48,033 nucleotides of DNA from an uncultured Clostridia bacterium (GCA_947589265.1 CANQAI010000003.1:1-48033); one strand, 5' to 3'; positions 2,597 to 23,949 are shown, counted from the stretch's first letter. Made by a program: numbers and translations. Notes: generated by a model from the sequence alone, not told the origin.

Positions 2597-5500
2597 ATGC
2601 TAGAACTTAAAAACATTAAAAAAACATATATAACAGGGGATGAAAAGGTAGAAGCACTAAAAGGAATAAATTTAAAATTCAGAGAGTCAGAATTTGTTTC
2701 TATTTTGGGGCAAAGTGGTTGTGGAAAAACAACATTATTAAATATTATAGGTGGCCTAGACAGATATACATCAGGCGACCTTATTATTAATGGCAAATCT
2801 ACTAAAAAATTTAAAGATAGAGATTGGGATGCATATAGAAACTATAAAATAGGTTTCGTATTTCAAAGCTACAATCTAATAGCACATCAAACAGTATTAT
2901 CAAATGTTGAACTTGCACTAACAATAGGTGGAATTTCTAAAAAAGAAAGAAAGCAAAGAGCAATTAAAGCATTAGAAGAAGTAGGATTAAAAGACCAAAT
3001 AAATAAAAAACCAAACCAACTATCTGGTGGCCAAATGCAAAGAGTAGCTATAGCAAGAGCCCTAGTAAATAACCCAGACATAATTTTGGCAGATGAACCA
3101 ACTGGAGCTTTAGACACAAAAACAAGTATACAAGTAATGGAAATACTTAAAAAAATATCTAAAGATAAGCTAATTATAATGGTAACACATAATCCAGAAC
3201 TTGCTGAAAAATATTCTAGTAGAATTATTAAAATTTTAGATGGTACCATTACAGAAGATTCAAACCCAATCTTATATAATGAAAACATAGAAACAAAAGA
3301 TACCTCATCAATAGGTAGAACATCTATGAATTTTCTTACAGCATTCAGGCTAAGCCTAAATAATTTACTAACAAAAAAAGGCAGAACTATATTAGTAGCA
3401 TTTGCAGGCTCAATAGGAATTATTGGCATTGCACTAGTTCAAGCTGTATCAAATGGCTTTCAAGGGTATGTTGATAGTATTCAAGAAGAGACCCTAACTT
3501 CGTATCCACTTACCATTATGCAAGAAACAACTGATATGACTAGTATGCTTCTTTCAATGACTTCAGACGATACCAATAAAGAAGCCACAGGAACAGTAGA
3601 AGAAAAACAATATGTTTCTGATATGTTATCTAACTTAAGCACTAATGATTTAAGAAGTTTTAAAAATTATTTGGAAAATAACTATAATAAAATAGAAAAT
3701 GATATATCATCAGTAAAATATTCATATAGCGTAGAACCAGCAATTTATACAAAAGATGTAACTGGAAAAATTGCAAAATTAAATCCTAGTAACTTGTTTA
3801 GGACTTCATCAACTATGATGTCTTCATTTACATCAGCATATTCTCAAATGACTGATGACAAAGAGGCTATTAATAATTCTTATGACATTTTAGCAGGACG
3901 TTTGCCAGAAAGCTATAATGAAATGATAATAGTTTTATCTCAGCCAAATACTATTTCAGACTTACTTATTTATTCATTAGGCTTGCGAGATCCAGAAGAA
4001 TTATCTGATATAGTAACTAAAATTATGAATGGTGAAAAAACAGACATAAATAATGAGCCACTTACGCTTTCTTATGAAGACCTAATGAATGTAGACTTAA
4101 AGCTAATAATGGGAACAGATACATATAAATATAACGAAAAATATAATATATATGAAGATATGTTACAAGATGAAAAATACTTAGAAAATTTGTATAATAA
4201 AGCAATAAACTTAAAAATTGTAGGAGTTGTTTGCCCAAAAGAAGGAACAACTTCAATGATGCTAAATACAGGAGTTTTATATACAAGTGACTTAATAGAT
4301 TATATAATTGACAATTCTTCGAAAACAGACATAGTAAAAAAGCAACTTGAAAATACAGAAGTAGATGTATTTTCTGGTTCGAAATTTGAAGATAAAAACA
4401 ACAAATTAGACCTAAATTTTCAAGACTTAGTTAGTGTTGACAGTAGCAAACTTGAAAGTGCATTTAATGTTAAAATAGACCAAAACGAATTACAAAAACA
4501 AACACAAAATTATATGACAGAAATAACTAATTCAATAACAACAGACACTACACCTGCCAAAAAAGCTTTTGCAGATGGTTTAAATACTTTAGCAAATGGA
4601 ATGTTTGAAAGTATAGAAGGAGAATTTGGAATAGATGACATAGATAAAATTGTTTCTAATTATTTAAACAAATCTGAGCCATCAAAAATATTAAGCTCAC
4701 TTGAAACAAAATATGTGATTCCACAAAGTACTTTCAAACAAGCATATACTGGTTTGTTAAAAAGTCTATTACAAATATATATAAACACATATAACAGTAT
4801 GTCTTTAGTTTTGCCACAAGGTGGAAATACTGGAAGTGATAATAATCAAAATAGCAATACAGAAAACGAAAATATAGAAAACAACAACTCAGAAACTAAT
4901 AATAATGTAGCTAACTCTCAAAATCAAAATACATTTCCTAATGTACAATCAGGTAAAGTAGTTGTTAATAAACAAATGCTTCCTTCTATTATTTCAGCAT
5001 TTACAAGTAGTGCAGCAATAGAACAAACAGAAAACACAATGGCAAAAGTAATGACAGAAACAGTTATGAAAAAAGATATCTTAACAAAAGTAGGAGAACT
5101 AACAGCTAACTTAACAAATAGTTTTGCATCAGCATTTAATGTAGATGAAGAAAAAATAGCAGGTTCATTTAAACTTAAAATGACAGAAGAAGAAATAACA
5201 AGAATAGTAACAGCAATGATGTCAGATACACAAACTACTGCTAAAACAAACTTAATATCTTTAGGCTACCAAGATAAAGAAGAACCTACTTATATTTCCT
5301 TCTATTTTGATAGCTTTGACGGAAAAGAAAACTTTATAAACTTTATAGATACATATAACGAAAAAATGGAATCACAAGGCGATAAAGAAAAAATAATAAA
5401 TTACACAGACACAACAGGAATACTTATGGAATCAGTTAAAACAATAGTAAATGCAGTAACTTATGTATTAATAGCATTTATATCAATATCACTTGTGGTA

Positions 5501-5860
5501 TCATCAATTATGATAGGAATAATTACATATATTTCAGTATATGAAAGAACAAAAGAAATAGGAATATTAAGAGCTATTGGTGCTTCAAAACACAATATAT
5601 CTTCAATATTCAATGCAGAAACATTTATAATAGGATTACTTTCCGGACTATTCGGAATAGGAATTTCATATTCATTAATACCTATTATTAACTCTGTACT
5701 ACATCACTTTACAGGTAACATACCTTTAAATGTAACACTATACTTTAATAATGCAGCAATATTAGTAATACTAAGCATTATACTTACTTTAATAGGAGGA
5801 TTAATTCCTGCTAAAGCTGCATCTAAAAAAGACCCAGTTATAGCATTAAGAACAGAATAA
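2597..5860 (+). CDS. ABC transporter, fused ATP-binding/FtsX-MacB-type permease
   Basis: Walker [25 protein letters not shown]; one N-terminal TM, large extracellular loop, C-terminal TMs with [14 protein letters not shown]. Confidence 0.92.
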
Positions 5861-5922
5861 TTTTGACTGCTTTGGAAAAACATCTCTTAAGTGGCAGTTT
5901 GCCACATTTAAGATATATATTG

Positions 5923-5958
5923 AAAGATTACTGATTATTAAAACAGTAATCTTTTTTT
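5923..5958 (+). terminator. Rho-independent terminator after the ABC transporter
   Basis: aaagattactg...cagtaatcttt stem followed by a T run. Confidence 0.7.
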
Positions 5959-5999
5959 GTATAAAAAACCTTAACTTTTAATAAATTCTTTAAATAAGC

Positions 6000-6026
6000 A
6001 CAAATTTTATTATTTTGTCATATTAT
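6000..6026 (+). promoter_or_regulatory. Mother-cell sigma (sigK/sigE-like) promoter of the cotJ operon
   Basis: ACA-16 bp-CATATTAT upstream of the cotJA RBS AAGGAGG; resembles the sigK consensus. Confidence 0.5.
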
Positions 6027-6062
6027 GTAGTATAAACAAAAAATAAGGAGGAAAAGAAAAAA

Positions 6063-6437
6063 ATGTTTAATCGTTATAGAAGATGTTGCTGCCAAAACAA
6101 CTATAACCCAGAAGTAATAGAAAACTTATGTAAAAATGTAGGCACTTCTGCTGAATATGAAGAAACAAATAACTCTGGCTGTGGTTGCATGCAAAATATG
6201 CAAACTAACTGTACCTGTGGATTTGACGATGAAGAAAGTGCATTTCCATCAAATCCAATGCTAGCACAAAGTTATGTTCCTATACAAAAAATGAACAGAA
6301 CTTTCACACCAAAATGTGGATTAAAAATGGGAACAATTTATCCTGAACTAGTAAGTCCTTATGTACCAGGTCAAGGAATGGCTGAAATAGAATATTTAAA
6401 AAATGCAAACGAAATTGGGGAGGGATGTAACAGATGA
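6063..6437 (+). CDS. cotJA: Spore coat-associated protein CotJA with Cys-rich N-terminal extension
   Basis: LAQSYVPIQ...GLKMGTIYPEL motif; first gene of the cotJA-B-C order. Confidence 0.88.
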   Translation: MFNRYRRCCCQNNYNPEVIENLCKNVGTSAEYEETNNSGCGCMQNMQTNCTCGFDDEESAFPSNPMLAQSYVPIQKMNRTFTPKCGLKMGTIYPELVSPYVPGQGMAEIEYLKNANEIGEGCNR

Positions 6438-6853
6438 TGAACAATAGTGATATGTTTGGTGGATGTAGTGATACAATTACAAACTGCAATTGTAACTATA
6501 CTCCTCAAGGAATAAATGCAGCATTTGGATACAATACAGCAAATGAAGCAAATAATGGAGATTGTGGATGTATGTCAAATGATGATAATATGGAAACAAG
6601 ACAAGAAATGTTAAACAAAATTAGAAGCTTAAATTTTGCTATTATTGAGCTTGGTCAATATTTGGATACTCACCCAGATGATAGAAAAGCCCTTTGCTTA
6701 CACAAAGAATATTGTAATCAATATAGAGAATTAACAGATAATTATCAAAAAGTTTATGGACCACTTACTATTCATTTCCCATGTAATAAATGGAGATGGC
6801 TAGAAGAACCATGGGCTTCGTTCATTTTGGAAACTATTTGCATTTTTTATTGA
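6434..6853 (+). CDS. cotJB: Spore coat protein CotJB, 5' part; native codons end at 6814, and the last 12 residues (ASFILETICIFY) come from the inserted element
   Basis: FAIIELGQYLDTHPDD, YGPLT, WRWLEEPW; the conserved PWPWE end is missing here and is found at 17300-17326. Confidence 0.88.
   Translation: MMNNSDMFGGCSDTITNCNCNYTPQGINAAFGYNTANEANNGDCGCMSNDDNMETRQEMLNKIRSLNFAIIELGQYLDTHPDDRKALCLHKEYCNQYRELTDNYQKVYGPLTIHFPCNKWRWLEEPWASFILETICIFY
6800..6832. other. attL junction
   Basis: gaacca-TGG-gctt-CGTTCATTTTGGAA; repeat arm at 6819-6832. Confidence 0.85.
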
Positions 6854-6866
6854 AGCATGTTAAAAT
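6838..6866 (+). promoter_or_regulatory. sigA-type promoter just inside attL
   Basis: TTGCAT-17 bp-TAAAAT with extended -10 TG. Confidence 0.55.
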
Positions 6867-6924
6867 GAAGCTAAAGAAAAGCACAATAAGCATATAAAAA
6901 ATAAAAGAAAGAGAGGATTTAGTA

Positions 6925-8025
6925 ATGGAAGAAGAAAATAAAAGTAAATATAAGTTAAGTAGAGTATTAAGTTTAGTAGCATTATTTGTATTAATAGTAT
7001 TCTTAATAGGAAATGGAATATCGTATGCAATGGGAGGTACTAATATATATTCATGGATATTAGAAAAAATTGGAACAAGTAAAGAATATGAAGAAAATGA
7101 AGAGCATGAAGAATATGAAGAATCAAAAACAGATATTAATCAAGTAGTAGAAAAAAATGGAGTTAAAGTTACATTAAGGGATATAGCATATGATACTAAC
7201 TTCTTAATAATGGGCTATATGTTTGAAACAGAAGATTTATGCCAAAAATCATATGATTTAGGATATTACCAAATTGACCAAAATGTTCAAGACAAAAATG
7301 AGGTAATTGTAAATATGCTACAAACTACAGCAGAAATAGAATTTCAAGCTAAAATATCTGATGGACAAAATGAAACATATATAGGAAATTATTCAGATCC
7401 AAATAGTGGTTTTAAATTAGAAACTTATCTCATATCTCTTTCAGATAAAACTCAAACTTTTGCAAGGGTAATTTCAAAAGATCAACTTGAATTATATGTA
7501 GTAATGGATATTTCAAAATATAGATTTGATGACACAGCAAATATAGAAATAATTATAAAACAATTAGGCATGAACATGGTTGAAGCAATGCCACCAATAT
7601 TTGAAGGTGAATGGAACTTTACAGTAAATAACTTAAATAAAGGAATAACAGAAATAAAGAATTATATAAGTACAGAATTTGAAATTGGTCAAGATAATCT
7701 TTTAGAAGTAGAAACAGATAGACAAAAAACACAAGAAATTGCAAATAGATTTGTAGAAGCTTTAAATGCAAAAGATATAAAAACAATGCAAGAATATGGA
7801 AGTTCAGATGCTGTTGCAACAGTACAAAAATATAATATGACAAATATGGAATCACCAAAATTTTCACATTATATGGAAGAAAGTAATTCATATTATTATT
7901 TTGCACCATATGAGTTTGAATATAATGGAATAACTGATCCTCAAGATATAAGTTTAGCCTATTTTCTTGTTTTGGAAGAAAGAGATGGTAAATTCTTAGT
8001 AACTTGTGTTGGAGCAACAGGCTAA
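6925..8025 (+). CDS. Membrane-anchored protein with DUF4179-like domain
   Basis: N-terminal TM; INQVVEKNGVKVTLRDIAYD...FEGEWNFTV pattern. Confidence 0.6.
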   Translation: MEEENKSKYKLSRVLSLVALFVLIVFLIGNGISYAMGGTNIYSWILEKIGTSKEYEENEEHEEYEESKTDINQVVEKNGVKVTLRDIAYDTNFLIMGYMFETEDLCQKSYDLGYYQIDQNVQDKNEVIVNMLQTTAEIEFQAKISDGQNETYIGNYSDPNSGFKLETYLISLSDKTQTFARVISKDQLELYVVMDISKYRFDDTANIEIIIKQLGMNMVEAMPPIFEGEWNFTVNNLNKGITEIKNYISTEFEIGQDNLLEVETDRQKTQEIANRFVEALNAKDIKTMQEYGSSDAVATVQKYNMTNMESPKFSHYMEESNSYYYFAPYEFEYNGITDPQDISLAYFLVLEERDGKFLVTCVGATG

Positions 8026-8088
8026 GTAGGGTTTTCTCCTTTTCGTTTTAAAATATTATGTAATATGAACAATAACAAAAGAATTTCA

Positions 8089-8123
8089 AAAAAATAGAGG
8101 TGTTTTTCATCTCTATTTTTTTA
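8089..8123 (+). terminator. Rho-independent terminator, possibly bidirectional
   Basis: aaaaaatagag...ctctattttttt. Confidence 0.7.
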
Positions 8124-8310
8124 TGCAACAAGGCTGAGTTATCTTTTGGAAAACTACTTCTTATCTACAAATAAATAGAAAGTTATATATTTATTAACTT
8201 ATAATATTTATATTACAATTGCATTACGTTTATATTACAGTTGTTGCATTTTAATAGCTTATCTGATAATATAAAAATAGAGTTATTGTAATATATGGAG
8301 GGAATACTAT

Positions 8311-11300
8311 ATGTCAATAGAATTAAAACCACATAATGAAGAAACATATATAAAAGTTAAAGAAAAATTTCAAACCAGTAATAAGGTTGCTGTTATTCAT
8401 CCAACTGGAACTGGAAAAATGTATATAGCTTTAAAAATGTTAGAAGATAATAAAGAAAAAAAGGCAATTTATATTGCACCTTCTAATTCTATATTACATG
8501 ACTTAAAAAAGAACATATTCGCAGAAGGAATGAATATGTCTGATTTTCCAAATCTAAAAAGAATTACTTATCAAAAATTAGCAAGATTATCTAATGAGGA
8601 AATTCAAAATTTAGATTTTGACATTATTGTTTTAGATGAATTCCACCATTGTGGAGCACCAGAATGGGGAAAAGGCGTAGAAAGATTAATACAAAAATGC
8701 CCTGATGCTAACGTATTAGGACTATCTGCCACACCATTAAGATATTTTGATGGATTAAGAGATATGTCAGACGAAATATTTGATAATAATGTTGCATCTG
8801 AAATGACTTTAGAAGAAGCAATAAAACAGGGAATACTTCCTGAAGCTATTTATGTTAGTACTTTGTATGGCTATGACGCAGAAATAGAAAACATACAAGA
8901 AAATATAAATAAAATAAAAGATAAAGAAAAAAGAGAACAAGCACAAGAATTATTTGATATTTTAAGTGAAAGATTGGATGAAAATACAAGAAATTTACCA
9001 GAATTATTTATGGAATATATGAAAAATAAAAGTGGCAAATGGATTGTTTTTTGTCGAAATATAGAAGATATGCAAGAAAAAATGGAACAAGCAAGAAATA
9101 TGTTTGGAAGAGTTAACTCTAATATAACTATTAGGGGGGTTTCTTCTCAAATAAGAGAAAACGAACAAATTCTAACTGACTTTGAAAATGATAATGATGA
9201 AAACTCATTGAAACTATTATATGCAGTAGATATGCTTAATGAGGGTTATCATATTAAAGACTTAGATGGTGTTATTATGATGAGACCAACTTTATCACCA
9301 ACTATATTTACACAGCAATTAGGAAGAGGATTAACCGTAGGAGATAATAAAATACCTGTTGTTTTAGATTTAGTAAATAACTTTTCTACTTGTAAAATTA
9401 TAGAAGACTTTACAGAAAGAATGAAAGCATACAAAGGAAAAACAGGCACAAGATTGCCAAGAGACGAAACAAAAAGTAGAATTTCTATATTTGATAAAAC
9501 AAAAGAATTTATGGAAATTGTAAAAAAAATAACTGAATTATCAAAAAGAAATAAAATATCATTAGAAGAAAAAATACAGATATTTGAAAAATTTAACACA
9601 ACAGGGGAAGAATTAACTGGAGATACAATTTTTGAAGGATATCCAATAGGAAAATGGGCTATACAAATTAGAGCATCAATAAAACGTCAAAATACCGGAA
9701 AAAATCAAAGAGCAGAAATTAATCCAACAGAAGAGCAATTAGATAGACTAAATACCTTAGGAATATTAGATAGGCAAATAGAAGCTACAATAGATGAAAA
9801 AATAGAAATGTTAGTTGAGTGGATGAAAAAATATCCACAAGCTGAAATTAAACGAAATATTCCAGAAGGTATCTTAAGAGGTTATGCTACAACAGAAGAA
9901 GAATATTTATCGATTATTGCACAATATCAAAATATGCAAAGATATTATCTTTATATAAGACAAAGGAAAAATGATGGAAAACTTACAGAAGAACAAATTT
10001 CAAAATGTAAGGAAGGAAATGTTAGAGGTATCTTTGGCTATCCAACTGTAGTAGAAGAACTAGTAAAAAAGACTGGAGTATCTGAAAGAGAAATTAGCGA
10101 TATTATTAATAACTATGGAACAATGGAACATTTTATACAATCATATAAAAGTAAAGAACAAGATGACTTACAAAGTATTGAAATAAGAAATTTAGCAAGT
10201 TCTATGCTAAGGAACACAATCGATATTGATTTAAACCCTAATAGTAAAGGCTATGATGCTTTATATTCTGATATTATGCATATAGAACAAACTGATAATA
10301 CTTTAGAGTTATATTCTAGTGAAAAGCTTAAAGAACAGCTAGAAACTTTATTACCAAGAGAAAAGTATATAATTGAAAGAAGATATGGCTTATTATCAGA
10401 TGAATTATCAAGAGATTTAAAGAGTGTTGGCTCTACAATGAAACTAACAGAAAATAGAATTAGGCAAATACAAATAAAAGCATTGAGAAAATTAGGATTC
10501 TCTTATAAAGCAAAGCAATTTCGTTATACTTTTGATAAAAGCGATGTTTTAACAGAAGATGAATGCAAAACAATTGATGAATTAAAAAATAATCTATATG
10601 CAAGTGACTTAATATTTCGTAATAACCCACATATATCACCTAACGATGCAAAAAATGAAGATATTATAAAAGCTTTTGAACTTATAAAAAATATGAGAGA
10701 AATAACAGAGGAAAGAGAAGAACAACAATGGCAAGAAAAATTAGAAAAACTTAATACACCATTAGAAGATACAAATATATCTGTTAAAGCATATATGTAT
10801 TTGCAAAAAAGAGGATTAAAACTAATAGGTGATATAAACCTGCTATCACCTGAAGATAACGTTAATTTACTAGAACTATTAGGTAAACAAGCATATATAG
10901 AATTTTTAAAAGAAATAGCCCAATATGGTGAACTTAATACTGATATAAAACATTTAGAAGAAATGCCAGAAGAAGAGATAGCAGAAAAGTTAAGACAGCG
11001 AGAAGAAAAACCAAAGAAAGCTTTAGAGCAAACTATAGAGGAGCTGGGTTTTTCAATTAGAACATTTAATGTGCTAAAAAGAGCAGGTATAGAGACATTA
11101 GGAGATATTTCAAAATTAACAGAAGAGCAATTTTCAAGAATTAGGAATACTGGTAAAAAAATGTATGACGAAGTTGCTAAAAAACTTGGAGAATATGGAC
11201 TAACTTTTAGAGAAGATAAAGAGTTAGAAGATATTAAAAAAGGGGGAGCCTCAGAAAATGAAAGCCAGGCAACTCATGAGGCAGGAAATGAAGATACATT

Positions 11301-11451
11301 TATTGAAGATGTATTAGAAAATGCAACTAGACGAGTGGAAGTAAGAAAGCAAAATGAACAAGCAGAAGAATTAGCCAAAAAATATGAAGAAGTATTTGGA
11401 AAAAGAGCATCAAATGATGGACAGCCTTTTAATAACGATGGCAATAGGTAA
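8311..11451 (+). CDS. SF2 DExH helicase with helicase-associated domain, sigma-70 region 4 and two RNAP alpha-CTD-like domains
   Basis: HPTGTGK, LDEFHH, GLSATP, QQLGRGL; FEGYPIGKWAIQIR; LLPREKYIIERRYGL...TENRIRQIQIKALRKL; IEELGFSIRTFNVLKRAGIETLGDI...IRNTGKK. Confidence 0.85.
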   Translation: MSIELKPHNEETYIKVKEKFQTSNKVAVIHPTGTGKMYIALKMLEDNKEKKAIYIAPSNSILHDLKKNIFAEGMNMSDFPNLKRITYQKLARLSNEEIQNLDFDIIVLDEFHHCGAPEWGKGVERLIQKCPDANVLGLSATPLRYFDGLRDMSDEIFDNNVASEMTLEEAIKQGILPEAIYVSTLYGYDAEIENIQENINKIKDKEKREQAQELFDILSERLDENTRNLPELFMEYMKNKSGKWIVFCRNIEDMQEKMEQARNMFGRVNSNITIRGVSSQIRENEQILTDFENDNDENSLKLLYAVDMLNEGYHIKDLDGVIMMRPTLSPTIFTQQLGRGLTVGDNKIPVVLDLVNNFSTCKIIEDFTERMKAYKGKTGTRLPRDETKSRISIFDKTKEFMEIVKKITELSKRNKISLEEKIQIFEKFNTTGEELTGDTIFEGYPIGKWAIQIRASIKRQNTGKNQRAEINPTEEQLDRLNTLGILDRQIEATIDEKIEMLVEWMKKYPQAEIKRNIPEGILRGYATTEEEYLSIIAQYQNMQRYYLYIRQRKNDGKLTEEQISKCKEGNVRGIFGYPTVVEELVKKTGVSEREISDIINNYGTMEHFIQSYKSKEQDDLQSIEIRNLASSMLRNTIDIDLNPNSKGYDALYSDIMHIEQTDNTLELYSSEKLKEQLETLLPREKYIIERRYGLLSDELSRDLKSVGSTMKLTENRIRQIQIKALRKLGFSYKAKQFRYTFDKSDVLTEDECKTIDELKNNLYASDLIFRNNPHISPNDAKNEDIIKAFELIKNMREITEEREEQQWQEKLEKLNTPLEDTNISVKAYMYLQKRGLKLIGDINLLSPEDNVNLLELLGKQAYIEFLKEIAQYGELNTDIKHLEEMPEEEIAEKLRQREEKPKKALEQTIEELGFSIRTFNVLKRAGIETLGDISKLTEEQFSRIRNTGKKMYDEVAKKLGEYGLTFREDKELEDIKKGGASENESQATHEAGNEDTFIEDVLENATRRVEVRKQNEQAEELAKKYEEVFGKRASNDGQPFNNDGNR

Positions 11452-11454
11452 AAG

Positions 11455-19730: not shown

Positions 19731-20447
19731 ATGAAAGAAAAAGTTGGAAAGATAATTAGAATAATATTATGGATATTTATAATTGTTGCTAGCATTTATA
19801 TAGCTTATGGAATTTATAGAGAAAGTAGAATTAGAGACTATGAAGATGGAAATGTTATACAGCCTACAGAAAATTCTACAATAGAAGAACCTTCTACAAA
19901 TGAACTTATGCAAAATGAAGTACAAAATGAGGCAACAGACAATAATGTAGAAGAAAATACACAAAGCAATAATGAGGTGAAAAATACGCAAGCACCAAAA
20001 CCTACAAGTAGTAGTGAAGAAAAATTGCCAAAAGAAATACCTACAACTTACAAAGGCTATACAGTATCAGCTAGATTAACAATTCCTAAAATAAATTTAG
20101 ACACTTATGTGTTTAAAAACTATAGTAAATCTGCATTAGACACTGGATTAACAAGTTATTATGGGGGAAATCCAAACGAAGTAGGAAATTATTGTGTAGC
20201 AGGTCATAATTTCCTTAGAAAGAACATGTTTGGAAGACTTACAGAATTAAAAAAGGGAGATAGAATGACTTTAACAGATAAAAAGCATGGAGCAATTACT
20301 TATCAAGTATATGATATATACAAAGTAAATCCTGATCAAACTGAAGTTTTATCGCAAGAAACAAAAGGTAAAAAGGAGATTACATTAATTACATGTAGTG
20401 ATTATACAAGTAAGAGAATTATTGTAAAGGCAAGAGAAGTAGTTTAA
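19731..20447 (+). CDS. Sortase
   Basis: LTIPKINL, NYCVAGHN, ITLITC, catalytic Arg in KRIIV. Confidence 0.92.
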   Translation: MKEKVGKIIRIILWIFIIVASIYIAYGIYRESRIRDYEDGNVIQPTENSTIEEPSTNELMQNEVQNEATDNNVEENTQSNNEVKNTQAPKPTSSSEEKLPKEIPTTYKGYTVSARLTIPKINLDTYVFKNYSKSALDTGLTSYYGGNPNEVGNYCVAGHNFLRKNMFGRLTELKKGDRMTLTDKKHGAITYQVYDIYKVNPDQTEVLSQETKGKKEITLITCSDYTSKRIIVKAREVV

Positions 20448-20472
20448 AAATTGAAAGGAATTAAGACACAAA

Positions 20473-23400
20473 ATGAAAAAGTTAGTAAAAATAATCTTGT
20501 TTGTAATTTTGGGCTTAATAGTAATCTTTTTTATAATATTTTCTTTACTGCAAAATAATGTGGCAGATCAACAAAAAAGAATTTCTACTACATTCCCAGA
20601 AGATTATAAACCATATATTGAAGAACTAAAAAAACAACATTCAAATTGGGAATTTAAAGCCTTATACACTAATTTAGATTGGAATTATGTAATAGGTAAA
20701 GAAAATGTATATGGAAAAAATTTAGTACCAAAATCATATTCAGATAGTTGGAAAAATACTAAAAAAGGTGAGTATAATGTAGAAATAGATGCAGGCTGGG
20801 TAGATAGTTCAAAACAGGCAGTAGAATATGCAATGGATCCAAGAAATTTCTTAAATTCTGTTAGAGTATTTCAATTTGAAGAATTATCATATAATTCAAA
20901 TACAAATACTTCAAGCAATATTGAAAAAATACTTTATGGTACAGAATTTTATAACAAAATTGTAGAATACAAAACATCAACAGGTAGTAATGTAGTTACA
21001 AATAAAAAATACTCAGATTTAATTTTAACAGCTGCCAAAACGTCTGACGTAAGTGGCTTCCATTTAGCATCTCGTATAAAGCAAGAAGTGGGACCATTTT
21101 TATCACATAGTTCAATTAGTGGCACAGTAGAAGGGTATAAAGGACTATATAATTTTTATAACATAGGAGCAACCAGCTCATCAGAGCCTTTAGGAGCTAT
21201 AAAAAATGGACTTCAATTTGCTAAAGATGGAAAGGGTGCAAGCAGTTCTACTAAATCAAAATATTTAATACCATGGAATACAAAGGAAAAAGCAATTACT
21301 GGTGGAGCAATTTTTATAGGTTCTAGCTATATAAACTTAGGGCAAAATACTATTTATTTGCAAAAATTTCATATTCTAGACAATAGTGGAGATGATAATC
21401 TTTTTTGGCACCAATATATGACAAATGTATTAGCACCATATAGTGAGTCCAAACTTATATATAATGGATATTCAAATAGCAAAATGCTAAATTCTTCTAA
21501 TTCTTTTATTGTACCAATTTATAATAATTTACCAGAACTTCCATGCATTAGCCCTGCTATTAACTCAAAAGATTATACAAGTGATAATAAAAAAGTATAT
21601 TCAAATGTATCTGGTAGTTTAAATATTAGAACAGGACCTGGTACTTCTTATGATGTAATAACAAGTGTTAACTCCGGAGAAGTAATGACAAGAATAGCAA
21701 AAGGCAGGCAAACAGGAGAATTATGGGATAGAGTTCGTTTAGAAAATGGCATTGTAGGCTATGTTTTTCAAGACTATATAAAAGAGGTAAAAGACATTCC
21801 TGTTGAGAAAATAAACTTATCTTTGGAAAATACAACTTTACAAAAAAAAGAAAGTGCTACTATAAAAGTAGAAATAACTCCTTCTGACGCAACTAATAAG
21901 TCATTAACATTTACTTCTAGCAATTCTGGAATAATAACAGTAGATAGCACAGGAAAACTATTTGGAGTAAGCTCAGGAAAAGCTACAATTACAGCAAAGG
22001 CTAAAAATGGCGTAACTGCAAGCATAGATGTGACAGTATATAGCAAAGTCACAGGAATAAAGCTAAAAGAGCAGGACTTATGTTTAGAAGTAGGGCAAAG
22101 TTACAGGTTAGTTCCAATAGTGCTTCCAGAAGATGCAAACAACCAAAAAGTAAATTATTATTCTTCACAAAGCAATATAGCAAATATTGATGAAAATGGA
22201 AACATACAAGCTATATCTAATGGAAATACCACAATAAAAGCAGTAACAGAAGAAGGAAACTTTGAAAGTGAATTAACACTTACTGTAATACCAAAATTAG
22301 AAGAAGGAGCACTTGTATTTGAAAGACCATTACAAGTTAATGCAAATCAAATTATAGGAGTAAATGAAAGAACAACAGTAAAAGAATTGCTAGAAAAGAT
22401 TAAAACTAATTATAGGCTAGAAGTTGTAAATAAATCTGGAACGATATTAACAGAAGAAAAAGTTGTAGGAACAGAAAGTAAAGTTAGAGTTTATGATGAA
22501 GGAAATTTAATTATAGAATATAGAATAATTCTATATGGAGATGTAAATGGAGATGGAAAAATAAATAGCATAGATTTATTAGTGTTGCAAAGGCATATAT
22601 TAGAACTTAAACCATTAGAAGGTATGTTTTTAAAAGCTGGTAATATTGCCAAAAACGGAAAAGCACCATCATCTATTGATTTATTAAAAATACAAAGGCA
22701 CATTTTGAATTTGCAACAAATTGATCAAACCTCTAACAATATAATAAATAGTATACAAACAAAACCTAATACAGAAACAATAAAACTAGAAATCAGCAAA
22801 GAAACTGTAAAACAGGGAGAAGAATTTAGTGTTACAATGAATGCTGAAAATTTTAAAGTATCAGCTTATGATATTAATCTTCACTTCGATTCTAATAAGC
22901 TTGAGCTAATCTCAGAAGCAAAAGATATAAATGTAGAAGATAATAATATAATTTATACTTGGTTTGACGAAAATGGTGGAAAAAATATTAGCAAAAATAA
23001 AGAACTAGCTAAATTTAATTTTAAAGCAAAAGAAGATGGTGTAAATAATTTTTCACTAGAAGGTAATTTCTATAATGAAAAAGAAAATTTAGTAACACCA
23101 AAAATAGAAGTAGCAGAAGTGAAAATAGGAGAAATAAATGAAAAAGAAAATACTTCAAATGAAAATCAAAATGAAACAAATATAGTACAAAGCAATGATA
23201 AAAATAATACAAATTTAGCGATTTTGCGTTTAAATAAACCGGGAATAGTACCTAACTTTAGTAGGGAAATTAAAGAATATTATATTAATGTAAATGAAAG
23301 CATTAATGATTTAGAAATTACAGCTGTTCCAGAAAACTCAAATTCAAAAATAGATATAATAGGAAACAAAAATTTAAAAAACGGACTAAATACTATTATA

Positions 23401-23949
23401 ATTAAAGTTACTTCAGAAAATAATCAAAATGAAACAGAATATAAAATTTATGTAACAAAAACATCAAATGGAGAAACAGCAAATGCACAATTAGAAACAT
23501 TAGCTATTGAAAACCAAACATTAGAGCACAACTTCATAGAAAATATTACAGACTATACAGCACAAGTAGATAACAATGTAAAGAGTTTAAATATTTTAGC
23601 AATTCCACAAAATGAAAATGCAAAAGTAATAATAGAAGGAGCTAATGATTTAAAAGTAGGAGATAATACAGTAATTGTGACTGTTATTGCAGAAAATGAA
23701 GTTACATTTAAAAAATATAAAATTACTGTTCATAGAAGAAATGAGCAAGAACAAAAAGAAGAAGAATATAAGCAAAACAATGTAAATATTAAGCAAGTAA
23801 GCTTAATTGACAACAGTAAACAAATAATAGATAAAAAGCAAGAAAATATGCAAATAAAAAGTGAAAACAGTTTATGGCTTGTAGGTGGAATACTTTTAAT
23901 AATATTAGTATCTGGGATTGTAATAATTAGAATTTTTAAGAAAAAATAA
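20473..23949 (+). CDS. Multidomain cell-wall hydrolase-like protein: glucosaminidase-like, SH3b, 2x Ig (Big_2), dockerin, cohesin-like, 2x cadherin-like, C-terminal TM
   Basis: AMDPRNFL, YNFYNIGA, GQNTIYLQKF, HQYMTN; LNIRTGPGTSY; GDVNGDGKINSIDLL duplicated. Confidence 0.75.
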   Translation: MKKLVKIILFVILGLIVIFFIIFSLLQNNVADQQKRISTTFPEDYKPYIEELKKQHSNWEFKALYTNLDWNYVIGKENVYGKNLVPKSYSDSWKNTKKGEYNVEIDAGWVDSSKQAVEYAMDPRNFLNSVRVFQFEELSYNSNTNTSSNIEKILYGTEFYNKIVEYKTSTGSNVVTNKKYSDLILTAAKTSDVSGFHLASRIKQEVGPFLSHSSISGTVEGYKGLYNFYNIGATSSSEPLGAIKNGLQFAKDGKGASSSTKSKYLIPWNTKEKAITGGAIFIGSSYINLGQNTIYLQKFHILDNSGDDNLFWHQYMTNVLAPYSESKLIYNGYSNSKMLNSSNSFIVPIYNNLPELPCISPAINSKDYTSDNKKVYSNVSGSLNIRTGPGTSYDVITSVNSGEVMTRIAKGRQTGELWDRVRLENGIVGYVFQDYIKEVKDIPVEKINLSLENTTLQKKESATIKVEITPSDATNKSLTFTSSNSGIITVDSTGKLFGVSSGKATITAKAKNGVTASIDVTVYSKVTGIKLKEQDLCLEVGQSYRLVPIVLPEDANNQKVNYYSSQSNIANIDENGNIQAISNGNTTIKAVTEEGNFESELTLTVIPKLEEGALVFERPLQVNANQIIGVNERTTVKELLEKIKTNYRLEVVNKSGTILTEEKVVGTESKVRVYDEGNLIIEYRIILYGDVNGDGKINSIDLLVLQRHILELKPLEGMFLKAGNIAKNGKAPSSIDLLKIQRHILNLQQIDQTSNNIINSIQTKPNTETIKLEISKETVKQGEEFSVTMNAENFKVSAYDINLHFDSNKLELISEAKDINVEDNNIIYTWFDENGGKNISKNKELAKFNFKAKEDGVNNFSLEGNFYNEKENLVTPKIEVAEVKIGEINEKENTSNENQNETNIVQSNDKNNTNLAILRLNKPGIVPNFSREIKEYYINVNESINDLEITAVPENSNSKIDIIGNKNLKNGLNTIIIKVTSENNQNETEYKIYVTKTSNGETANAQLETLAIENQTLEHNFIENITDYTAQVDNNVKSLNILAIPQNENAKVIIEGANDLKVGDNTVIVTVIAENEVTFKKYKITVHRRNEQEQKEEEYKQNNVNIKQVSLIDNSKQIIDKKQENMQIKSENSLWLVGGILLIILVSGIVIIRIFKKK

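Follow-up and report, generated by a model that had tools for sequence, protein, structure and literature searches.

We analysed a stretch of DNA from an uncultured Clostridia bacterium (GCA_947589265.1 CANQAI010000003.1:1-48033; its 48,033 nucleotides are the window, to which coordinates refer). At 8311-11451, on the + strand, a single open reading frame (ORF) free of internal stops encodes a protein of 1046 amino acids (aa) that joins a superfamily 2 (SF2) helicase, a helicase-associated (HA)-like/mid module, region 4 of a sigma-70 factor (sigma4), two C-terminal domains of the RNA polymerase alpha subunit (alpha-CTDs), one of them degenerate, and a tail. The gene sits between cotJB and cotJC (Mn-catalase family), inside an element of 10,488 bp. 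We suggest that the protein may be a chaperoned effector, exported by its order's type IV secretion system (T4SS) and acting on the promoter DNA or machinery of another bacterium. The suggestion is tentative, and we would put its chance somewhat below even. It is made because three things agree well: a generic partner predicted to bind tails, a core T4SS unlinked to a relaxase, and a cargo that evolves fast and is specific to the lineage.

Most of the domains had been named in a preliminary description of the DNA, and they hold up. Pfam matches above curated cut-offs are ResIII (aa 3-143, E 2e-16), Helicase_C (aa 230-339, 5e-10), Sigma70_r4 (aa 677-728, 1e-6) and RNA_pol_A_CTD (aa 898-961, 7e-23), and a PDB sequence search with aa 651-980 gives, as its top matches, alpha chains of RNA polymerase and region 4 of RpoD/SigA. 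The helicase core (8311-9540, +) is made up of a pair of RecA-like domains in which motifs I, II, III and VI are intact; motifs I-VI are all present, and in a set of 96 close homologues (four proteins from genomic loci and 92 out of 120 listed) their key residues are 91-100% conserved. Its best Foldseek matches are the type ISP, XPB, SauUSI, RadD and HsdR translocases, yet identity to XPB, RadD, type ISP and SauUSI is 13-18%. Profile matching found no nuclease or methyltransferase family in the protein or the element, in agreement with the preliminary description as to nucleases; what marks a type I, III, ISP or IV restriction enzyme is not seen here.

The sigma4 helix-turn-helix (10333-10494, +; Pfam, PDB search and family profile) has a changed recognition helix, with E714 and N715 in place of the R and E of SigA, as judged against two SigA sequences. 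The second alpha-CTD (aa 909-964, nt 11035-11202, +), recovered by the same three methods, retains as R917 the arginine equivalent to R265. The first (aa 818-873, nt 10762-10929, +) is the degenerate copy; Pfam misses it, a profile of the family's own copies detects it, and it carries lysine at the R265 position. The numbers of equivalent residues in alpha-CTD and sigma4, and their contact roles, follow E. coli. There is no Pfam match to sigma region 2 in the protein, which lacks the combination of regions 2 and 4 with -35 residues that makes a sigma-70 factor. Likewise, it shows neither the alpha N-terminal domain nor the rpoA-operon position of an RpoA; it matches RpoA in the CTD only, far below cut-offs, and the true RpoA of relatives is a separate gene product of ~316 aa. 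No rpoA was found in the genome's own assembly (88% complete), and automated tools may count the helicase's alpha-CTD as one.

Between helicase and sigma4 lies the mid module (9547-10320, +), which defines the family and comprises an HA-like domain and a helical region. The helicase-associated segment of the preliminary description is borne out in part: the HA-like domain scores in the homologues P0066 (E 1e-7) and L062 (2e-6), and is below threshold in the protein itself. An AlphaFold2 model of the whole protein (mean predicted local distance difference test, pLDDT, 79; predicted template modelling score, pTM, 0.45) indicates that the domains are folded and that their mutual placement is uncertain. 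Residues 411-800 are modelled as one confident unit in which the mid module packs with sigma4 (pLDDT 92.5, pTM 0.82). A Foldseek search with aa 411-800 gave no PDB match at E<=0.001 and found only SigA, through region 4; the ESM Atlas gave no usable match for the mid module or for the partner described below.

Distribution and evolution of the family

The fusion is not a unique chimera, an objection raised in advance by the preliminary description: about 97 of the 120 homologues listed, counted by eye, have both PF04545 and PF03118. In the 96 close homologues that gave the alignment profile, family profiles detect sigma4 in 96/96 and alpha-CTD in 90/96. With a mid-module profile (aa 413-672, 11 rows), matches in the order come from 30 of 401 genomes and 14 of 49 genera; three of the matches, weak or truncated, were not taken into the locus set. 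In a phylum-wide sample of 401 genomes the module occurs in the genome of origin and in 0/400 others. In a global library, 640 clusters at 50% identity match the profile. Among the best 150 representatives, some of which may be database proteins ending at contig ends, 127 have at least 350 aa; helicase was found in 21 of these, sigma4 in 112 and alpha-CTD in 99, with 0 to 5 alpha-CTD copies per protein. Sigma4 is followed by alpha-CTD in 90/150, mostly without a motor, and the most frequent sigma4 residues across family copies still agree with SigA.

The same picture is seen in the 32 genomic loci (28 genomes): a helicase is present in 10 and absent from 22, as it is from 106 of the 127 long representatives. 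One helicase locus, L072, has the start of the module only, without sigma4 or alpha-CTD. Since the helicase is dispensable, it is the sigma4/alpha-CTD module and not the motor that defines the family. On a FastTree phylogeny of 117 rows, midpoint-rooted and so without a true root, the helicase state switches 22 times (shuffled mean 25), and at least 15 switches are forced by well-supported branches. Several helicase-less members (L062, L075, L114, P0170, P0232) keep the first ~ten helicase residues at their start. From the tree changes and these leftover starts we infer that the motor was lost by repeated in-frame deletion. Two members, L163:3275-6356 and L115:2310-4584, are each spread over two frames, whether by a frameshift or by an error of assembly; both still have the partner downstream.

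The borrowed domains are also the fastest to change. Pooled over nine close pairs that are non-independent, the ratio of non-synonymous to synonymous differences (pN/pS) is lowest in the helicase (0.24, from three pairs) and rises through the mid module (0.48) and alpha-CTD (0.63) to sigma4 (0.77). Individual pairs go above 1, though over short domains. DNA-contact residues are invariant in 30 RpoA sequences of the order. In 162 family alpha-CTDs, the R265 equivalent is kept in 70% (Lys in a further 11%), G296 in 81% and N268 in 58%. DNA binding by the borrowed domains is plausible on these figures. Sigma4 recognition residues are often lost, which argues against the reading of one fixed -35 consensus; no such consensus is conserved. 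The promoter-targeted motor of the preliminary description is still plausible, but the helicase is dispensable and the -35-reading residues are poorly kept.

The architecture and neighbourhood search that had been called for finds the family patchy and, in the samples searched, confined to the order; most loci sit between housekeeping genes, and the partner is the only conserved neighbour. A phage origin was considered and rejected, no relative being found in viral contigs in a scan with two peptide patterns only. The order also has further alpha-CTD proteins other than RpoA (L164:5435-7652, L165:4670-5488, L166:4370-5581, L167:5245-5460, L168:5597-5809), including tandem alpha-CTDs beside a sigma4 protein and stand-alone alpha-CTD-like genes of ~70 aa.

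Partner gene, C-terminal tail and type IV secretion

The partner, which the preliminary description had not picked up any more than the cotJB element or the secretion context, is a candidate chaperone or adaptor of 131 aa encoded 3 nt downstream of the helicase gene (11455-11850, +), with no Pfam or NCBIfam match. A partner is directly downstream in 23/32 loci (21 of family A, 2 of family B) and within 1 kb in 26. Both partner families also trail unrelated large proteins: helicases with nine HA repeats (HAx9), other helicases, a sigma-like cluster, an mTERF-repeat protein and orphans. Family A occurs in 4/5 and family B in 5/5 of the genomes tested, the latter in 2-12 copies per genome, and 19 of 28 fragments upstream of partner matches have no Pfam match. 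The partner families are generic rather than tied to one cargo, as expected of a chaperone.

Some individual loci may be mentioned. A relative has, at L171:2460-7344, a cluster in which a different helicase is joined by a sigma-like protein of 535 aa, with regions 2 and 4, and by a partner of family A; a bacterial mTERF-like-repeat protein is directly upstream of a family-B partner at L222:309-1484. Family B (~145 aa; L213-L241; G000:C50:2937-3440, C21:14182-14520), whose tested members have no Pfam or NCBIfam match, lies beside orphan proteins and is a possible marker for candidate effectors.

The partner-binding site is predicted to be the C-terminal helix (aa 995-1029), which with the polar end (11293-11448, +) is also a candidate export signal. 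When aa 979-1046 were modelled in complex with the partner, the score was 0.69, and 0.02 for the best control; this mark is reached by 116/157 solved complexes and 2/215 mismatched pairs, a calibration that holds only roughly with alignments made here. The runs share at least 63% of contacts, with partner pLDDT of at least 61, and place the tail helix (~aa 997-1030) against partner residues 73-127. By a rule fixed after the tails had been seen, 22 of 54 non-redundant proteins upstream of partners have acidic, non-hydrophobic tails, compared with 15 of 688 ORFs of the own genome. The tail type predicts the partner type in 39/54 cases, leave-one-out (A 22/25, B 17/29). A search of the own genome with a single tail profile turned up no other clear member.

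The order, probably TANB77, consists of uncultured gut Clostridia with reduced genomes (1-2 Mb, ~27% GC, five families). VirD4 is present in all five genomes checked, together with two ATPases of the VirB4 type. Contig C10 of the own genome carries genes for three VirB2-like T4SS pilins, PrgI, a protein with a lysozyme domain and one of the VirB4s; the other VirB4 gene is flanked by gyrB and gyrA and adjoins dnaA-dnaN, and VirD4 is near recR. The system is split over these three housekeeping loci (G000:C10:4177-16715, C13:16316-20877, C2:43068-45126; L194, L193, L192), and the gene positions are syntenic in two complete genomes of other genera. Orthologues of the C10 VirB4 (61-92% identity) are present in 142/151 genomes and 28/28 genera, mostly in single copy. 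Judged by this conservation, the T4SS is a chromosomal core system of the order. Relaxase PF03432, the only relaxase family searched, was found in three of five genomes, not in the own genome (88% complete) or in G115.

If these parts belong together, we propose the following course of events. A DNA motor, predicted to be ATP-driven, is joined to copies of sigma4 and alpha-CTD; the small downstream protein would be a secretion chaperone bound at the C-terminal helix; and the chromosomal T4SS would export the large protein into another bacterium. The target is taken to be bacterial because the domains come from bacterial RNA polymerase. There sigma4 and alpha-CTD would bind DNA resembling -35/UP elements, or else the factors with which such domains are usually in contact, so that upstream promoter DNA is occupied or remodelled. 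Helicase-less members may act as a passive block; those with a helicase may move along double-stranded DNA, where they would jam RNA polymerase or displace it.

Parts of this have precedents. In Helicobacter the chaperone CagF binds near the C-terminal signal of CagA, a T4SS effector (consulted part of PMC12857230). Here too a small dedicated protein is predicted to bind near the C-terminus of a large one in a T4SS-bearing organism; unlike this case, CagA hits eukaryotic cells, export here is a proposal, and no sequence relation was seen, none having been searched for. The T4SS of Patescibacteria resembles that of our order in its reduced-genome monoderm host, VirB2-like pilins, chromosomal location, general lack of a linked relaxase and VirB4 near dnaA/dnaN (PMC12102498, PMC12857230, in the portions consulted), and its pilin array is essential for epibiotic growth (PMC12857230, same portion). 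It differs in that ours is found in spore-forming Clostridia, in three split loci. The consulted portions of both accounts name no RNA-polymerase-mimic effector or chaperone.

By analogy, the whole order might live on other bacteria as Patescibacteria do, using a domesticated T4SS to inject a large arsenal that evolves fast and has a tail-plus-chaperone code; our family would be the part of it that hijacks transcription. Its members, imitating the face with which RNA polymerase binds promoters, would then silence or redirect host promoters, some of them towing an XPB-like motor. We consider this wider idea doubtful. Partner-dependent lifestyles have been proposed for other reduced gut lineages (PMC12306168, part consulted), and the main text of the TANB77 paper PMC11680825 does not contain the term 'T4SS'.

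Several observations weigh against export of an effector. A directly downstream partner is missing from 9/32 loci, 6 of which have none within 1 kb, and the count is partly circular because the profiles were partly made from these loci; 4 of 28 genes upstream of partner matches are ordinary housekeeping genes. Family-B tails are classed correctly in only 17 of the 29 cases given above. The last six residues of the 1046-aa protein include one acidic residue and fail the tail rule, which 73 of 102 long family representatives also fail. As predicted, tail and partner meet in a coiled coil, a type of interface that may pair promiscuously, and tail-partner binding as modelled would suit an antitoxin equally well as a chaperone. 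Family genes are unlinked to the T4SS loci; with relaxase in 3/5 genomes the T4SS may have a conjugative role; and proteins of ~1000-1900 aa are large T4SS substrates. DNA-contact residues are eroded both in alpha-CTD (N294 43%, K298 51% of 162 copies) and in sigma4 (equivalents of R584 35%, E585 35%, R586 58%, R588 42% of 116 copies), a pattern that also fits relaxed selection, not separable here from diversifying selection.

We found no description of the helicase-sigma4-alpha-CTD architecture or of a TANB77 T4SS in open-licence texts, supplements aside. A 2025 review calls the role of Gram-positive T4SS as dedicated protein injectors a long-standing question (PMC12857230, consulted part), and TANB77 is without a cultured member according to the part of PMC11680825 consulted. 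Given a core T4SS, a recognisable code of tails and chaperones and a candidate effector assembled from pieces of RNA polymerase, both questions would become testable without culturing: laboratory strains can express the genes, and candidate effectors can be listed across whole genomes by means of the partner families. If the lifestyle is indeed parasitic, co-culture suggests itself as a way to isolate members. Should export prove wrong, a sigma4/alpha-CTD fusion family of 640 clusters with an apparently repeatedly deleted motor could still give promoter-binding modules of varied specificity.

Alternative readings

The protein could instead work inside its own cell against phages or plasmids, with sigma4 and alpha-CTD either serving as decoys for attackers of RNA polymerase or recognising the strong promoters of invaders; until triggered, the protein would be kept inactive by its partner, and motor or module would then arrest growth. 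We regard this, the strongest of the alternatives, as unlikely. It would suit a patchy and mobile family whose borrowed domains evolve fast and vary in copy number, whose motor is similar to restriction translocases and whose tail-partner pair could be a toxin and its antitoxin; the cotJB element also holds a nucleotidyltransferase-HEPN pair. Borrowing of this kind is known in defence: BREX type 2 PglW has an alpha-CTD-like domain (PMC12839542, part consulted), MzaA has sigma domains, and both give partial profile matches here. These matches span only ~65-110 aa and score far under the NCBIfam cut-off, and the operon partners of a PglW or MZA system (NERD, kinase, Pgl or Mza genes) were not seen. 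The PADLOC check proposed in the preliminary description returned partial domain matches only; its idea of a decoy that senses phage hijackers gained no direct support, there being no repeated defence partner and no nuclease or other output domain. Against defence it also counts that most members lack the motor, that only 2/32 loci are near a related serine recombinase, with mostly housekeeping genes as neighbours, and that the same partner families serve unrelated cargoes. Polyvalent proteins of phages and conjugative elements, with their SWI2/SNF2-methylase dyad or LPD domains, are another class to compare; the main text of PMC5512222 mentions neither 'sigma' nor 'CTD'.

Helicases of the ResIII-Helicase_C-HA repeat type (PF04851, PF00271, PF03457) share with our protein the motor subfamily and a first HA-like domain. 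They are TtrA-like. They differ in that here the mid module, sigma4 and alpha-CTDs replace the HA repeats and the motor is optional. An HAx9 protein (L073), from the same family of genomes, is 42% identical over aa 1-496, has nine HA repeats instead and is served by the same partner family. Sigma4 and alpha-CTD might thus be generic grips on double-stranded DNA, swappable with HA repeats and without any link to transcription. The erosion of base-reading residues agrees with this, as does the fact that alpha-CTD copies also score as helix-hairpin-helix domains. Generic grips would hardly explain why two distinct RNA polymerase parts are kept in a fixed order in 90/150 representatives, mostly motor-free, or why the commonest sigma4 residues are still those of SigA, and we give this reading little credence.

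Nor do we think it at all likely that the protein reads -35/UP elements as a pre-assembled unit and in this way represses or activates a set of promoters of its own cell or element, with the motor optional: the confident packing of sigma4 with the mid module and the diverse recognition helices, which could encode diverse DNA targets, speak for it, and it leaves unexplained the tail-partner system of unrelated proteins and the sigma4 pN/pS near 0.8 in a family confined to 30/401 genomes with the partner as its only conserved neighbour.

The cotJB element and other features of the window

The gene is cargo of an integrative element (6815-17302), delimited by its junctions and by relatives, that splits the spore-coat gene cotJB. 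The 5' part of cotJB (6434-6814, +) is interrupted after the Trp codon at 6814, and the final codons continue from 17303. At each end a 3-bp core is accompanied by one arm of a 14-bp inverted repeat: the left junction (6809-6832) has the core at 6812-6814 and an arm at 6819-6832, and the right junction (17281-17326, +) has an arm at 17281-17294 and the core at 17300-17302, followed by the last cotJB codons. By Pfam, the element encodes a large serine recombinase (Resolvase, Recombinase and zinc ribbon; 15654-17258, +). Among contigs from four sequencing runs, compared with positions 4000-14000, one ends right at 6814; this hints weakly at a branch there and was not counted.

A cotJB survey matched 45/51 genomes of the genus. 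In the 30 best-scoring cotJB loci, the site is empty, with cotJB intact and adjoining cotJC, in 25 and is filled at the identical base, with the same arm, in 5. Conjugation-type genes are found in three of the five other filled elements noted and unrelated cargo in one; G329 is the only other filled cotJB element with a family member, which is helicase-less. The element was considered as integral to function and rejected: because cargo differs between relatives and a related serine recombinase is near just 2/32 family loci, it is a vehicle and not the mechanism. cotJB appears to be an integration hotspot (6815-17302; L062-L066) for small cargo islands or conjugation-type elements, by species. 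With its serine recombinase, att arms, split sporulation gene and empty sites in relatives, the element resembles the sigK skin element (PMC5025042, part consulted); in both, precise removal would restore the gene. Unlike skin, its target is cotJB and its cargo is wholly different between relatives; excision here is a putative step.

The element also carries a transglutaminase-like gene (11878-12954) and a leucine-rich repeat (LRR) protein gene (12958-13644), together 11878-13644 (+). A related pair, possibly an enzyme and its inhibitor, is found at G000:C2:50322-52708 and in the G329 element. The nucleotidyltransferase and HEPN pair is at 14293-14965, its first gene seemingly split across two frames. 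Elsewhere in the window, a glycoside hydrolase 57 branching-enzyme gene (35443-37036) seems to be split into two overlapping ORFs, and a cohesin-domain protein, a sortase and a large SH3/Ig/dockerin surface protein are encoded consecutively at 18615-23949.

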